Source: Octopus vulgaris
Taxonomy: Eukaryota
Reading direction: 5' to 3'
NCBI GenBank assembly: GCA_951406725.2
Contig: OX597823.1
Span: 59,458,001-59,522,000 of the forward strand
Length of the DNA stretch: 64,000 nucleotides
The translations under genes were made by a program, and so were the position numbers. The notes beneath the pieces are model-generated. The model ran no database searches. It saw nothing but the letters and a program-made list of their open reading frames with translations, and had not been told where the DNA came from. Below, piece by piece: positions 18,026-38,834 of this stretch (position 1 is its first letter; every line of letters starts with the position of its first letter).

Positions 18026-18109
18026 AATACAATTCACCATCTATAGTAATTATGCTAGTTATAATAATGATTATCATAATTAGTTATAATAAAACAAATG
18101 ATAATAATA

Positions 18110-18880
18110 ATACGTGAAGGAGTCATACCCAGTGACTGGCATAGCAGCACCATAATCAACTGCTACAAAGGTAAAGGTGATGCTTTAGATAGAAATAACT
18201 ACAGGAGTATCAAACTGCTGGATCAGGTGATGAAGGTCACGGAGAGGGTCATAGCTCAACTAATTAGGAAGAGAGTCTGCTTAGATAAGATGCAGTTCGC
18301 TTTTGTGCCAGGTAGAAGCACAACTGATGCTATATTACTGGTACAGCAATTGCAGGAGAAATACCTAGCCAAAGATAAACCTCTATACTTGGCTTTTGTG
18401 GACTTGGAGAAAGCCTTTGACATGGGCCCCTAATCCCTTATCTGGTGGGCGATGTGGAAACTGGGGATTGATGAGTGGTTAATAAGAGCTGTACAGGCCC
18501 TGTACAGAGATGCCATTAGTAAAGTAAGGGTTGGCAATGAGTATAGTGAAGAATTCCAAGTAAAAGTAGGTGTTCACCAAGGATCAGCCCTCAGCCCATT
18601 TTTATTCATCATAGTCCTCTAGACAATAATAGAGGAATTCAAGACAGGTTGCCCCAGGGACCTCCTCTATGCCGATGACCTTGTTCTCATAGCAGAATCA
18701 CTACCAGGCCTTAGAGTCAATGTTGCAAAAACCATAATCCCAGTAAGTAGGAAGGCAAACACTTCACAAACTCCTTCAGGTAGATGGCCCTGCTCAATCT
18801 GTAGAAAAGGTATAAGTAGAAACTCCATAAGATATACCCAGTGTAAGCTATGGATGCATAAGAGTGCAACAACATCAAAG
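18110..18880 (+). mobile_element. RTE-clade LINE reverse transcriptase fragment (pseudogenised)
   Basis: IPSDW..YKGKGDA..NYRSIKLL, QFAFVPGRSTTDAI, AFVDLEKAFD, VHQGSALSP and LLYADDLV motifs, with stops and frameshifts. Confidence 0.92.
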
Positions 18881-23886: not shown

Positions 23887-25270
23887 TAGTTTTATTTTTA
23901 TAGCGTGCTTTCACTTCACTACCGAGCGCAGCTCTGTGTGCCTTGGGTATGTGCTGTGATTTGTTGTGATGCTCTGATGGTTATTGTATGGAAAGTGTTC
24001 TGCGTAGGATGTGTGCAGTGCCTAGTAGTGCAATTTTCTGTATGTTATATGTGTTTGTAAGTCCTGGTGTTTTTGTTATGTATTTGTCTGAATATTTTTT
24101 TATCATGCCTAATGCACCTACTATGATAGGAATTGTTTCTGTTTTCAGATTCCACATTCTAGTTACCTCTATTTCCAGGTCTTTGTATTTTGAGAGTTTC
24201 TCCATTTCTTTTAGAGACACGTTGTCATCTGCCGGTATTGATACATCAATTAGAAAGCATTTTTTTCTTCATGATCTCTGACAACTATATCTGGTCTGTT
24301 AGCCTTAATTTCTCTATCTGTGTGTATCGGCATATCCCAGAGTATGGTTGCTTTCTCATTTTCTGTGACCTTTTCTGGTGTGTGCCTATACCATCTTTTT
24401 TCTGTTGTTATTCCATAATGTTGGCATAGCTTCCAATGTATGTAGGTTCCAACTCTGTCATGTCTGTGAATATATTCCTTCTTAGCCAGGACTGGGCAGC
24501 TAGAGATAATATGATTTATTGTTTCTTGTCCATCTCCACATATTCTGCAGTTACTTGTAATATTTCTTTTCATTACATGTTTTTGGTAATTTCTGGTGGG
24601 GAGGCTTTGGTCTTGTGCTGCAATTAAAAATCCCTCTGTTTCTGCTTTGAGTCCTGAGCTTCTCAACCATTGCTGGGATTTTTCTTTGTCTATTTCTTTT
24701 GCGTTTAGTTTAGTGCAGTATTTACCATGAAGGGGTTTTTCTTGCCATCGTTTTATCATGGCTCGTTGCTGTTCTATTTTTAGTTTGGATTTCATTTGTT
24801 TTATAGCTTTTGTTGTTTCTTCAACATCTTCTTCTTCTTCTTTGTGTTTATTAGGTGGTATGATTTCTTGTTTGTATTTGTCAGCTTCCTTAAATACTGA
24901 GAACAGTTTTTTGTTTTGCTCGTGTTTTGCTGCTATCTGGATCAGTTTTCCTTCCTTCTGAAGTAGGTATTTTTGCAGTCCTATGGTGGTTATTTTATAG
25001 TAGTTTTCCAGCTGTATAAGGCCTCTACCACCTTCTATAAGTTGTATATATAGTCTTTCTATGTCAGATTTTGGGTGATGCATCCTAGATCCTGTCAGTA
25101 TTTTTCTTGTTTTCCTATCTATTTTGGACAGTTCATTTCGTGTCCAGTTAAGGATATTGTAGCTGTAACTTATAACTGGGACAGCTAAAGTGTTGATACC
25201 TATTATCTTGTTTTTAGCATTGAGCTCTGTTTTTAGTATTGATCTAACTCGTCTATAATATTCTTTTTAT
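23884..25270 (-). mobile_element. 5'-truncated R4/Dong-like non-LTR retrotransposon (C-terminal RT region, CCHC knuckle, REL endonuclease)
   Basis: ORF with CRICGDGQETINHIISSC, RHD, ILWD, NRPDIVV..IDVSIP, KLSKYKDL and ALLGTAHILR. A single frameshift in a homopolymer near 24260. (ATT)n tracts on both sides. Confidence 0.9.
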
Positions 25271-28200: not shown

Positions 28201-28642
28201 CATTGTGTACTTATTTACGATATAGAATATCTAGCTCTACACTAACCAATACATACTTCGTTTATTGATGCCGTAGAGTAGTATTTCAAGGTGATTTGCT
28301 TACTATTTCACTCGGATGAAGCAAACATGCTTCAGCGCTCTTTGACTGGTTGGTTAGTATTTTAGTAGGTTAGAATAAGATTTGTTGGTTATTCCAACCA
28401 GATTGAACAACTAATTGTATGGACATTACATAGCATGCAATGTGTACATTGCAAAATATATAAATATGTATAAAATTTGAACCTTTTTAATATGATCACT
28501 GAATTAAACTGGAAATATTGATCATTTCATTAAAAAAAAAGGAAAATAATTAACGTCAACACAAAACCGATAATCAAATTAAAAAAGATAATTTAAGCAA
28601 ATTCATTGCCAAAGAGAATATATTTTATCAATATACACACAC

Positions 28643-28726
<84 letters not shown>

Positions 28727-28879
28727 CTATATATATATGAATGTATATAAATTATTCAATATTTCGTTTATAAAACATTTATAAATATTATTGACATATA
28801 ATATCTATTTCTAGAAAATAGTGACATATGTAAATAACTTGATGTGTTGTTGCAAGACATTAATTAGTAGCAATGGGTG

Positions 28880-28911
<32 letters not shown>

Positions 28912-29009
28912 TGTATGTATGTATGTATGTATGTATGTATGTATGTATGTATGTATATACGTATGTATTTATGTGTATATATGTATATATATATATATAT
29001 ATATATACG

Positions 29010-33365: not shown

Positions 33366-33659
33366 CATTATTATTTTTATTTCTCGATTTTGTAAGTATG
33401 ATTGAATCAATTACAATATCGTATGCAGAATATTGTTAGAGTAAAAAAAAATTCTTATCAGCAAAGGTTAATTCTATTACTTTTCTTTCTTTCTTTCTTA
33501 ACACTGAACCTAATCACAGAGATAGTTACCTTCATTAACTTCGTTACAATATTACAATTCTTAAATCGCTAACAATTATTCTTTGACTCTATGTAAGAAA
33601 TATTATCTATTTTATTTTACTAAAAATATCATCGGTAAAAGAAGAAAGCCCATTCTTTA

Positions 33660-34460
33660 AACAATTATATACTAGTATTCAACTTTTTGTCTACTTCGGA
33701 AATACATCAAGTCTTTAGGAGACACAGGAAAATGTTTAACATAAGGATAAGACTTTATCGTAGGACTAGCAACAAATTTGTTTATACTTATCAGTTCATT
33801 TATTTGTTGAAGGGGATGAATATATTTGCTATGACAAGTAATTCGTACAGTATTCTCTTCACAAACCCTGCAAAGTCTAATGCATTGTATGGATTCTTCA
33901 TTTTGTAAAATAAATGGCTGGTCATGAGACAATACTTTCCAGTTAATGCTAAATAGTGTATTTTTAACTTTAGTGTCCATATATATTTAGATAGTGATGT
34001 GTCAATTTTTTCACTTTGTGTTTCAGAAAGTATGAATATGTTGGTTGTGTGGTATTTCGTACCGCTTTGCTGTTGGCCTAGTATATGTGAATACAGTTGA
34101 TATATAATTCGTGGTTCCAGTTGGGCTATCGATTATATTATTTGTGAGGCAATTTCCTTTCAGAGAGCAGGATAAAGAATTATTACAGTTTCAATTAATG
34201 ATGCCAGGTGTGTGGTTTTGTTTTTCATACTTTGAAAGTTTTTGTGGTTATAATTTGCTATAGCTATTTCGCAGTTGTTAACTGCGGAATCTGATATTTT
34301 TATGTTGTATTTGTTTATTAGACTGTGGTACCTGTGGTTTGGGTGGAAGTGTTTTTGGAGCATTTGGCTGCAAAAGAGATAACTGAATCAGATAATTTTG
34401 CTTTCCTATTTTATGTTTTGGGATTATTGTGGATGCGATATTAATTATGTAGTGTACTTT
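33660..34460 (-). mobile_element. Penelope-like element remnant
   Basis: FSINWKVLSH..LCRVCEE..INELIS resembles the Penelope C-terminal I.WKIL..C.LC..E..LN.R.EL pattern. Highly decayed. Confidence 0.45.
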
Positions 34461-34583
34461 TCCCTGTAGTTGTTGCTACGAACAGCTTATTTATATGGAC
34501 TTGTTATTTCATTGGACATATTTTTATTGGAACAGAAAGAAGAGAGCCTTTACAAACAGTTCTTGGATAGGATTTTAACTTTA

Positions 34584-35389
34584 CAGGGTGGGTGGAGAGT
34601 AACAAGGCATTAGAAATTGCTTATAGAATTTAGTATCACTGAAGTCATGACGTATTTTTATTGTCTTATTTCTTATTTTCCAGATGTCCAGTCGCTTGAC
34701 TGTTCAGGAGCGAGCTAAGACAGCAGCACACTATGAAGTGTGGAATTCCATTGTTTTGGTTTAGAGATAGTGGCGTGCATGGAACACTACATCGTGCAAA
34801 GCTGATGACCACAGACTCTGTGAACGTTGCAACAAGGAGTGGCTGTCCAACTACATCCCAATCAGCAGCGAAGGACGAGGCAACAATGCAGGAAATGTTT
34901 AATTACAGCCCGCAAAAATCAACACGTCAAGCAGCTCGTGAAAGTGGGCTAACAAGACATACAATGCGTAGAGTGTTGCATAAAGAATTGGATTTTCATC
35001 CGTGGAAACCGCATTACGTGCAGGAGCTAAAAACCTAAAGACTGACCGCAGAAGTCCAGAACGCCGGAAGTCCAGATCTCACTCCATGTGATTTTTGCCT
35101 GTGGGGTTACACAAAAGATGAGCTGTACAAGACAAAACTTCTCACACCGGAGGACTTGGAGACACGGATTCAGGAGGTCCTCAATGATCCTTCAGAAGGT
35201 TGTTCATTCCATCTGTGGTCGTTCGAGGAAACTGGTTGACGCCACCGGTGCTTAAGTTGAAATATGAAGATTTACTTTCATTTTCCCATGTGATAAAGAA
35301 CACATATGATTTGTTGCAATAAATTTGTAAAAAGAATATGGATCCTATTACCAATTTTTAATGCCTACTTACTTTTCACCTATCCCGTG
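34584..35389 (+). mobile_element. Internally deleted Tc1/mariner-superfamily element (DUF4817 type)
   Basis: ~36-bp imperfect TIRs (cagggtgggtggagagtaac.. / ..ttacttttcacctatcccgtg). MSSRLTVQERAK, SPQKSTRQAARESG..LHKEL.FHPWK and RSPDLTPCDFCLWGY. The catalytic middle is missing. Confidence 0.85.
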
Positions 35390-35957
35390 CTTTTAGGATT
35401 CTTGGACTGTCTCTGCATAAAATGGAACATTTTCGTTTTCATATGGTTTATAAACAGAAGATTCTAAACACAGAGTGACATCGACAGAGTTGACTGATTT
35501 AAGATGTGTGACTACGGAAATGGAGATACCTAAGTTTTTAAAGAAGAGACATAATTCTTGCCCAGTTTTAACGTTTTTGTTTTAGATTAAAATGTCTTAG
35601 GATGTCTGGATAATCATCTCTGTAGAGGCCACCTCAAACAACACATCTTTGCATAATGTTGATGGTATATATAGGCCGAAACTTAAAAGTCACTGTAAAA
35701 TTTTGATAAATGTTTACTCTACTAAAAATTAGTGTGTCATCCTTCAGAATAATGTTCAACATTTTATACGTAACTTGACATAAAACAAAAATACACACAC
35801 ACATATACATGTAGGGAGGAATCTGTATGTCTGTGTAAACGATGTGTGTATAATGATGCAAACTTCTTAACTACATGACCATACACATAAGTAACTATCT
35901 ATATTCATAAAATTACCAAAGGTTTCATGTAAGACTTTCTTTCCTTACGATACGAGC

Positions 35958-36003
<46 letters not shown>

Positions 36004-36614
36004 CATTATTATTATTATTATTATTATTAAAATGCTTAGGGGCGCCTCACGTGTATATATGCTTGCTCAAATGTCACCTTTTATCTATATTTTTTGTCTC
36101 AGACATAGAACTGCAATTATGCTGATGCACTGTCTTATTTCAAGATTTCTAAATTTATCAGATCAATATATCAACCCCAGTATATATTTCAAAAGGAAAA
36201 TTCTCTAATTTGACAAAAGGGCTGCAGTACAACATGCCCTTACTCCGCTATACACAAACAGCGGATGCGTTTTCTAACAGAAGAACTTGAACAGAGTTTC
36301 TTTGACTGGCAATTGCTTACTTAACATTCTAGAAAAGTAGGATGTGATTTGGGAGAGATTTGCTGACTTTCTCGTTGAACAAACAAAACGAAATTTTATA
36401 TCGTACGAAATATGAAGAGTGTTCTAACACTATATGTGACCTGAACTGTTTTGAAGATGAATACTTAATTAAACTAGAAAGTATTGATCATTTCATAAAA
36501 ATATACAATAATCTACTTCAGTACAAATCCAATAATCTAATTAAAAAATGAATTAACAAAAAACATTTCCAATGGGAATATGTTTTGTCTAGAATTTGTA
36601 GAAGCGTGAGTCTG

Positions 36615-36652
<38 letters not shown>

Positions 36653-36924
36653 TATATATGTATATATGTGTGTATGTGTTCGTGTATGTTTGTAAGCGCG
36701 AATGTTTACCAAAAATTTTTTTGCAATATTTCATTTATAAAACACTTATAAATATTATTGACATATAATATATATTGTTTTAGAATAGTGACATATGTAG
36801 ATAATAATAACTTGATGTCACGCAAAATAATGTTAAAAGCAAATTGAATATATATACTCGTATATAAAGTTAGGTTGGTAGACAGAAAGATAGAAATCTA
36901 CGTATATATATATATATAAATATA

Positions 36925-36974
<50 letters not shown>

Positions 36975-37077
36975 AGATAAATTCTAATGCCAAATATGCC
37001 GAAACAAAAAATTGTTGATACCCATTATAATTAATGCGTCTCGAAAACAAACCGATAGAAATCTCTAAAAAATTCGT

Positions 37078-37143
37078 TATTACCGTATTGGTCCAATTTC
37101 GGGGTTAATTCATAAGAAATTTTCCCCTCTTCAGCGGCAAATA
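37078..37143 (-). ncRNA. Type I hammerhead ribozyme (left arm of foldback)
   Basis: Reverse complement of the 37264-37329 motif. Confidence 0.82.
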
Positions 37144-37263
37144 CGCGAGATATAAATACTTACTCATACCCATGGAAAAAGCAAGCACTAAGTCCTGAGC
37201 AGACTTAAGTACCCCAAATATTTTTTCCATGGGTATGAGTCAGTATTTCATTTATATCTCGCG

Positions 37264-37329
37264 TATTTGCCGCTGAAGAGGGGAAAATTTCTTATGAATT
37301 AACCCCGAAATTGGACCAATACGGTAATA
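37264..37329 (+). ncRNA. Type I hammerhead ribozyme (right arm of foldback)
   Basis: tatttgccg-CTGAAGA-gggg-(19 nt)-cccc-GAAA-ttggaccaa-TA-cggtaata. All core nucleotides are present and the three stems pair. Confidence 0.82.
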
Positions 37330-37562
37330 ACGAATTTTTTAGAGATTTCTATCGGTTTGTTTCGAGACGCATAAATTATAATGGTTATCAACAATTTTTT
37401 GTTTCGGCATATTTGGCATTAGAATTTTTCTTCTGCCCTTGTCTTGTAAATTATGTATAAATTTTACCTTTAAAGGCATTTTTTGATATGCTGGCCATTG
37501 ATAAAAATTTTTCCCGAAAAAAATTTTATCCTATATTAATTATATATATATATATATATATG

Positions 37563-38480
37563 TATGTATAGAAATTAAATATAAATTACAAAATGGGACA
37601 AGAACGCAAAAACACACAAAGAGACGACACAAAAAAACAGACGGGTCATTCGAAGCCTCTAATCTTCAGTCAGGAACCGGATCATCTTAGCAATTTCGGC
37701 TGATTAATCCTGATATCGCTCCGATCCGGCCAGCCCCAAAGAAAAACTTAGCCACGGGCATTAGATCTCTTGGAAAGAGGATCGAATGTATACGAAACTA
37801 GGACAGGATGCCACACGAATATAAATACAAGAAAAAAATAGAAATAAAAAACAAGAATAGTAATAACAGGACAAAACAGCGGGTGTCTTACGACTTCAGA
37901 CAATTTTTAACTTATCTTGGCTGGCGTATTTGAAAAAATGCCTTTGCGGCAAACGAAGACAACAGTGTTAACATGGCAGCGGTCAAGCCGGAAAGACCAG
38001 TTTGAAGGCAGTCACGTAAGAGGACGGAAGAGAGAGAAAGAAAAGCAGGGGGCAAGGAATCAAAGAGAGAGAGAAAGAAAGGGACGAAGGCACCAAGGGG
38101 GAGAGAGAGAGAAGGAAGGAATTAAAGAGGGGAGAAGAAACAGGATTGGCTCAGCAATAGAAATAATGGTGCAAAGTAAGAAAGACGGAGAAATGTGATA
38201 GAGTGGGGGAAGAATCAGAGGCAAGGAAAGAGAAAGACACAGACTATAGAGAAAGTGTGTGTAAAGAAGTCGTACAAGGTGGAATGTGCATACATAGGAG
38301 ATAGGGTACGTTACGCCGCAATAATATATGTATAGAAATTAAATATAAATTACAAAATGGGACAAGAACGCAAAAACACACAAAGTGACGACGCAAAAAA
38401 ACAGACGGGTCATTCGAAGCCTCTAATCTTCAGTCAGGAACCGGATCATCTAAGCAATTTCAGCTGATTAATCCTGATAT
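37563..38480. mobile_element. Element with 154-bp direct repeats (37563-37716 and 38327-38480); partial-tandem Penelope-like structure
   Basis: Two almost identical 154-bp copies flanked by (TA)n around a purine-rich interior. Confidence 0.6.
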
Positions 38481-38834
38481 ATATATATATCAATTTTTAT
38501 ACACAGTTACAAATGAGCTACTAATAGATTCATGTTTTATGATACATTGAATTGGCAGATATATAAGCTATGCCATGTATCTCCTAGCAATCTTTCAGGC
38601 TCAGTTCATAACGTTAGACGTATCTAAAAACGAGGACGCTAGACTATGAGAGAACATGAGAAAAAATAAACGAGAAAACTTTGAAGATAGGTGGCGCAAA
38701 AATTGGAACGTTTTAGTAGGTGCAAGCACATGGAGAGATTTCTTTTGTCGAACTGGAGAAAACCACCCACTTCGGATTGAGTAACTATCTTGCAGATTTT
38801 AGCCTCTTTTCTGTTATATTATTCTGTATCAGCT

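Follow-up and report, generated by a model that had tools for sequence, protein, structure and literature searches.

Two head-to-head copies of a hammerhead-bearing repeat between TA tracts in Octopus vulgaris: the likely scar of a single Penelope-like retrotransposition

A 567-nt insertion in the window (the whole 64-kb stretch of Octopus vulgaris DNA analysed here) consists of two copies of a single abundant, hammerhead-bearing repeat, 5'-truncated to different extents and placed head to head between (TA)n tracts. The locus is likely to be what a single Penelope-like retrotransposition left behind when its cDNA folded back or changed template close to a hinge hairpin, and the repeat itself would be either the pseudo-LTR (pLTR) of a Penelope-like element (PLE) or a non-autonomous derivative. 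Both outer ends of the insertion rest on TA tracts, and no flank is duplicated. The features of the locus, with the evidence on which each is drawn, are as follows.

36903..36972, no strand: interrupted (TA)n tract, the left target site (sequence; TA bias of PLEs described in PMC8557442)
36974..37221, minus strand: left copy, 248 nt, with the longer 5' end, containing the 41-nt centre, its 3' end abutting the TA tract (family contig joints, alignment)
37075..37145, minus strand: left-copy type I hammerhead motif, core 37134-37128, predicted cleavage 3' of 37086 (descriptor scans; lies within a 113-nt identical block)
37183..37214, minus strand: hinge hairpin, stronger on the ribozyme-sense strand (RNA and DNA folding against shuffles)
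37221..37222, no strand: inferred head-to-head inversion junction (other family contigs diverge behind 37221)
37222..37540, plus strand: right copy, 319 nt, with the shorter 5' end and a longer 3' end running into (TA)10 (family contigs, 30 of 30 bins)
37262..37332, plus strand: right-copy type I hammerhead motif, core 37273-37279 and 37307-37310, predicted cleavage 3' of 37321 (descriptor scans, folding)
37433..37540, plus strand: 3' extension, 108 nt, absent from the left copy (family contigs cover it in four of four runs)
37541..37560, no strand: (TA)10 tract, the right target site, common to the neighbouring repeat (sequence)

The two arms, 207 nt on the left (36974-37180) and 211 nt on the right (37222-37432), are mutually inverted and align over 206 columns with four substitutions, one 5-nt indel and one 1-nt indel. 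This alignment bears out a sequence-only reading that had described near-perfect inverted arms of about 207 bp beside a (TA)n tract. Other parts of that reading gave way: the element, said to end at 37432, continues as family sequence to about 37538-37540 and then meets a second (TA)10 tract, and the foldback is asymmetric, its 41-nt centre being no neutral spacer but the native upstream part of the left copy. Within the arms, the blocks 37045-37157 and 37250-37362 (113 nt) are 100% complementary; this perfect block over the ribozymes is near chance expectation (P=0.054) and was not accepted as a signal of selection or conversion. A blastn search of the 64-kb window returned no further copies of the arm.

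The repeat belongs to a family represented in public sequencing runs. The stretch, or part of it, is contained in 20 of 24 public runs, which come from four organisms and of which none is recorded as RNA. Contigs of four runs were placed on 37181-37540 (360 nt, comprising the centre, the right arm and the 3' extension), where 3520, 2715, 2012 and 76 contigs fitted per run, with 30 of 30 bins covered in each of the four. These contig counts and the complete coverage indicate a high-copy family, summed depth by itself giving no copy number. In runs X2 and X3, the summed depth of the 41-nt centre was 137-153k versus 102-252k for the hammerhead region, and an opposite-strand joint from 37181 to 37222 (reversed centre to arm start), which is the left copy's own sequence, was present in all four runs, and loose ends at 37221-37225 correspond to the reversed centre. 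Because the depth of the centre is close to that of the hammerhead region, the centre-to-arm joints occur in every run and these loose ends match, the centre is regarded as native family sequence. Contigs departing from the window behind 37221 with a common native continuation numbered 20, 26, 19 and 2 in the four runs, and these departures place the inversion junction at 37221/37222.

Loose ends behind 37538 start with TA-like runs (20, 27 and 18 contigs in three runs), and the 5' loose ends of family contigs go on into more family sequence. Summed depth is highest in the 3' half, as predicted by 5' truncation (up to about 900k, a depth and not a copy number). Behind 37538, the same 6-letter word follows an AT-rich run at the same offset in two of the three DNA-type runs, a weak hint that longer copies may continue into the body of the element.

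Joints between family sequences speak to how variable the arrangement is. Among the 15 of 18 joints listed, seven represent the native centre-to-arm link and four are same-strand deletions; in two, a shorter partner is joined head to head close to the same hinge (37220 to 37402, and 37221 to about 37469), and two are opposite-strand joints elsewhere in the arm (37237/37381 and 37244/37430), whose orientation is not given. The position of the junction thus varies among copies, so the inverted pair looks like a by-product of insertion. Clustering of junctions at the hinge is a hint rather than a result, because the reference exposes only junctions in or near the placed stretch.

Published descriptions of PLE insertions, as far as the cited texts cover them, match this anatomy. 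PLE insertions often carry an inverted 5'-truncated copy right at the 5' end, together with a one-sided tail and a microsatellite bias (PMC8557442), pLTRs of about 180-220 bp that meet head to head at palindromic junctions have been interpreted as products of self-priming (PMC3846280), and dual hammerheads occur on opposite strands 100-700 bp apart (Cervera 2014; PMC4209133). The present locus resembles the endonuclease-bearing PLEs described in PMC8557442 and PMC3846280 (Penelope/Poseidon, Neptune, Nematis; Adineta Pen2/Pen2a) in its inverted, 5'-truncated terminal repeats of about 200 bp lying head to head, and likewise in its unequal 3' ends, its hairpin or palindrome at the junction, its microsatellite target and the hammerhead within the repeat. 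Truncated copies with an adjacent head-to-head inverted partner are found at the locus itself and in two clear joints elsewhere, with two further joints of unknown orientation; the hammerhead lies inside the terminal repeat; and the AT-rich target is represented by TA tracts on both sides and by TA-like loose ends in three runs. Unlike the insertions in those descriptions, the locus carries neither an ORF nor a direct pLTR, the direct repeat being absent here, and its ends differ by 108 nt, compared with an optional tail of 30-40 nt. No ORF for a reverse transcriptase (RT) or a GIY-YIG endonuclease lies within the 567-nt insertion, as expected for truncated ends, and searches of the insertion and of metagenome and viral contigs gave no link between the family and an RT/GIY-YIG partner. 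The Penelope-like pseudo-LTR context proposed in the sequence-only reading is supported by the high copy number of the family, the 3' ends in TA runs and the varying head-to-head joints, which match the published anatomy. By analogy, the locus works like an inverted PLE insertion.

The main alternative to PLE membership, which we consider improbable, is that the repeat is a free-standing, short, non-autonomous element, a retrozyme-like derivative of the non-LTR type or a SINE-like unit, without an autonomous copy bearing it as a terminal repeat; the inversion would still be a by-product of insertion. The unit seen here, about 360-400 nt, is AT-rich and has a near-canonical type I hammerhead, with 6 bp in helix I and 4 bp in helix II, comparable to the elements of PMC7229834, and a preprint derives retrozymes from PLE pLTRs (10.64898/2026.07.22.740005). 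Like the metazoan non-LTR retrozymes treated in these two sources, the family is short, AT-rich, non-coding and high-copy, with a type I hammerhead of canonical size. Retrozymes, however, are by definition head-to-tail tandem repeats, whereas the locus is head to head, and no joint connecting the 3' terminus with the 5' region appears among the 15 of 18 joints listed. The TA-like runs at the 3' loose ends and the entry of 5' loose ends into more family sequence also weigh against an independent short unit.

In public collections, two patterns gave no matches in metagenome contigs; in viral contigs, a loose pattern gave two matches, both lacking stem II, and a family 3' pattern gave none. A full-text literature search returned no paper on this family, with Dfam, Repbase and paper supplements outside its scope.

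Both arms contain every base of the type I hammerhead core (CUGANGA, GAAA and NUH, in order), with helices of 6, 4 and 4 bp and an open helix I. On the plus strand, CUGAAGA occupies 37273-37279, stem II pairs GGGG with CCCC (37280-83/37303-06) around a 19-nt loop, and GAAA follows at 37307-10. Helix III (37310-37320) may form 4 bp around a 3-nt loop or, in a dimer, 5+5 bp around a central A-A mismatch; the AUA triplet predicts cleavage 3' of 37321, and helix I consists of 6 bp and, past a 2x2 internal loop, another 3 bp. A strict descriptor (stem II at least 4, stem III at least 4 and stem I at least 5 bp) matched twice in the 64-kb window, in the two arms, and never in 100 dinucleotide shuffles; a loose one (2/3/3 bp) gave the same two window matches and 20 in the 100 shuffles. 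The core, the stems and the AUA at 37321 therefore agree with the earlier claim of an intact type I hammerhead in each arm. The covariance-model check suggested for it turned out otherwise: Rfam returned no hammerhead match at the gathering score in the window, or at E<=10 in 36800-38600. Since Rfam does not recognize the motif, the hammerhead call rests on the descriptor. Sub-threshold Rfam matches to miRNA models over 36800-38600 were attributed to the long hairpin and discarded. The hammerhead motif lies 112 and 219 nt from the 3' ends of the two copies.

These motifs share with PLE hammerheads, including the dual motifs of Schistosoma mansoni as described in PMC4209133, the type I topology, the G10.1-C11.1 pair, a helix III that is short, palindromic and predicted to function in a dimer, and the occurrence in opposite-strand pairs. 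They depart from the minimal PLE form (min-HHR, 4-5 and 7-8 bp) in a helix I of 6 bp plus extension and a helix II of 4 bp, which gives a canonical size, and from the hammerheads of the same source in a helix III that can close 4 bp as a monomer, in the AUA triplet and in the 19-nt loop II.

Variation among family contigs offers weak support for ribozyme activity, as judged from sequence. Five of seven stem substitutions keep pairing (four of these being C>T changes that lead to G-U) and two break it, with no two-sided stem change visible in the family contig variant table. None of the 13 core positions varies, against 33 variable positions of 360, a difference that is not significant alone (P=0.28). 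A diverged family variant, seen in two contigs of run X7, keeps the CUGANGA core with altered stems and another base at the free position. A one-G insertion in loop III at 37312, carried by part of the family (about 9% of depth in X3 and 6% in X4), would make a 4-nt monomer loop. Elsewhere in the window, a decayed hammerhead-like motif at 35620-35691 on the plus strand has a core with one mismatch, a GGCC/GGCC stem II, GAAA, a 4-bp helix III and GUC, but no helix I; no hammerhead fold is predicted for it, and it is unrelated to the arm by alignment.

Folding predictions favour a dimeric ribozyme. The 71-nt monomer adopts the hammerhead fold with P=0.03 of the predicted ensemble, helix III alone costing +1.8 kcal/mol, while the predicted minimum-energy structure of the dimer is a double hammerhead at -40.7 versus 2 x -15.3 kcal/mol. 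On these models, dimers formed through the near-palindromic helix III would be the main working form of the hammerhead, which agrees with the dimer model put forward for PLE hammerheads (PMC4209133; review PMC6765202). The parent element would provide a partner in the form of a tandem copy on the same strand; the motifs at the present locus lie on opposite strands, so no dimer can form in cis within one RNA.

For the whole inverted segment, a single hairpin at -329.6 kcal/mol is predicted (z -42 against 100 shuffles), which would give a long dsRNA on read-through, and siRNAs have been reported to map to inverted regions of rearranged Penelope copies in transgenic flies (PMC3681739). Like those Drosophila copies, the locus is an inverted repeat able to yield long dsRNA, here as predicted from its sequence. 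In the full read-through RNA of either strand, the antisense arm is transcribed first, and for that reason formation of the hammerhead has a predicted cost of +98.3 kcal/mol; in an RNA starting after the hammerhead region of the opposite arm, the predicted cost is +1.6 to +2.3 kcal/mol. A difference of about 98 versus about 2 kcal/mol makes a two-state switch in one RNA unlikely, and the start site would decide the outcome. Read-through transcripts from either side would lock the hammerhead in a 200-bp duplex, an incidental ADAR or Dicer substrate, and only an RNA beginning at or inside the hinge could fold the ribozyme. No promoter or host gene was found around the locus in the Pfam scan of 150 frames, from which short exons could escape. 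In run X7, presumed to be RNA, family contigs are present, and every A>G or T>C difference is also seen in DNA runs, which makes this run uninformative for the locus. Moreover, the hammerhead of an Anolis PLE assayed in vitro cleaved only with protein and was dispensable for insertion, with no read ends at the site (PMC11167929); accordingly, even an intact motif need not act at this locus.

Two functional scenarios were considered. One, a long shot, is a programmed fold-back at the sense-strand hairpin, by which the family would repeatedly land as twin-ribozyme inverted units, combined with a bidirectional promoter at the hinge; two short RNAs of identical sense would then pair as a trans dimer and cleave one another, and read-through from the host would give a silencing duplex. 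If this were true, the choice of start site would select between activating and silencing the family. The other, which seems highly improbable, is the proposal of the sequence-only reading that a maintained element alternates between an RNA that cleaves itself and a 200-bp hairpin open to ADAR or Dicer. Both hammerhead motifs are intact, a strong hairpin is predicted, and the siRNAs from inverted Penelope copies provide a precedent (PMC3681739). Against such a toggle stand the 98.3 kcal/mol penalty in read-through compared with the small cost in RNA that starts beyond the opposite hammerhead region, the earlier transcription of the antisense arm, junctions that differ among copies and a clean 113-nt block that is near chance (P=0.054). 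The ingredients of the ribozyme and dsRNA idea are each already published, in the sources cited here, as by-products of PLE biology.

Under the preferred reading, that of a single Penelope-like insertion, a GIY-YIG nick in the (TA)n tract would prime reverse transcription; the new cDNA would then fold back or switch template near the hinge hairpin and copy itself, so that the inversion would arise by self-priming. At the position equivalent to 37390, both arms have A, but G prevails in the family contigs of three DNA-type runs (99.5%, 99.5% and 97.9%). An allele at or below 2% in the family that is common to both arms implies that the arms likely come from one template, later gene conversion being the alternative. 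The hinge (37181-37221) folds as RNA at -13.1 kcal/mol on the minus strand (z -2.91; 1 of 200 shuffles as good) and at -4.7 kcal/mol on the plus strand (z -1.23); folded as DNA, the values are -3.8 (z -1.88) and -2.5 (z -1.23), and the hairpin on the cDNA strand is weak (z -1.23). The left copy ends 7 nt beyond the hairpin, and on the opposite side the start of the right copy lies 2-3 nt past it; these flanking ends would fit, and at most suggest, a cDNA that stalled and folded back.

The shared rare allele and the hairpin at the hinge would equally suit a later inverted duplication at the DNA level, arising from replication or repair fold-back of a single inserted copy at the hinge hairpin. 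This explanation is hard to credit, since the duplication would have to stop inside the element on the left, both outer ends rest on TA tracts with no flank duplicated, and comparable joints recur in other copies.

An assembly or library fold-back artefact is very remote. The window's own junction at 37221/37222 was found on 0 of the 32 listed among 8,412 contig pieces, and inverted head-to-head structures are described as troublesome for short-read assemblies (PMC8557442); yet the arms differ at six places and have different 3' ends and flanks, which would be unexpected from a chimeric read, and comparable joints occur in a run of another organism. A MITE or foldback DNA transposon inserted at TA, to which the long inverted arms, the TA on both sides and the absence of an ORF might point, is largely refuted and can be practically discounted, as one end carries an additional 108 nt of family sequence, one of the arms includes the centre as a native part and the junction is not fixed across copies, in place of symmetric terminal inverted repeats with fixed ends.

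Read as a Penelope-like insertion, the locus cleanly exemplifies an insertion pattern already described, in a high-copy family with hammerheads that occurs in runs of four organisms. It is a possible substrate for two open questions from the cited papers, namely how PLEs make head-to-head inversions and whether their hammerheads cleave in vivo. Greater importance would follow only if junctions cluster at the hinge hairpin or if the hinge is a bidirectional promoter.

The surroundings of the insertion are rich in other repeats. The left flank (36449-36970) belongs to an older repeat with a second copy in the window at 28484-29007 (68% similarity over 540 nt), and the insertion sits in its TA tract. 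Directly to the right, a second TA-flanked repeat (37560-38480) has direct repeats at 37560-37716 and 38324-38480 (157 nt, 97% identical, 764 apart) and resembles a partial-tandem pLTR unit on the minus strand; it contains a CTGAAGA box, without a canonical hammerhead or an Rfam match. Further upstream, broken frames at 33420-34600 on the minus strand resemble a PLE protein in its C-terminal region, with a Cys-rich linker followed by a GIY-YIG end, a likeness that none of the scans bore out. As a PLE endonuclease, the decayed frames at 33675-34132 on that strand drew no Pfam, homolog or atlas support, and as a relative of the arm they were rejected too, the 3' region not aligning and 183 of 200 shuffles scoring as well. 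The Pfam scan of 150 frames recognized LINE-type RT pieces only (RVT_1 at 18080-18430 and a sub-cutoff zf-RVT at 24250-25263), besides one sub-cutoff DUF3915. At many places between 4600 and 62240, dispersed SINE-like families, at least two in number (one of about 430 nt with 67-88% similarity, one of about 200 nt), accompany LINE RT fragments (18080-18430 and 24250-25266), and a U6 snRNA gene or copy at 6997-7097 on the plus strand (102.9 bits) is the only Rfam match at the gathering score in the window.
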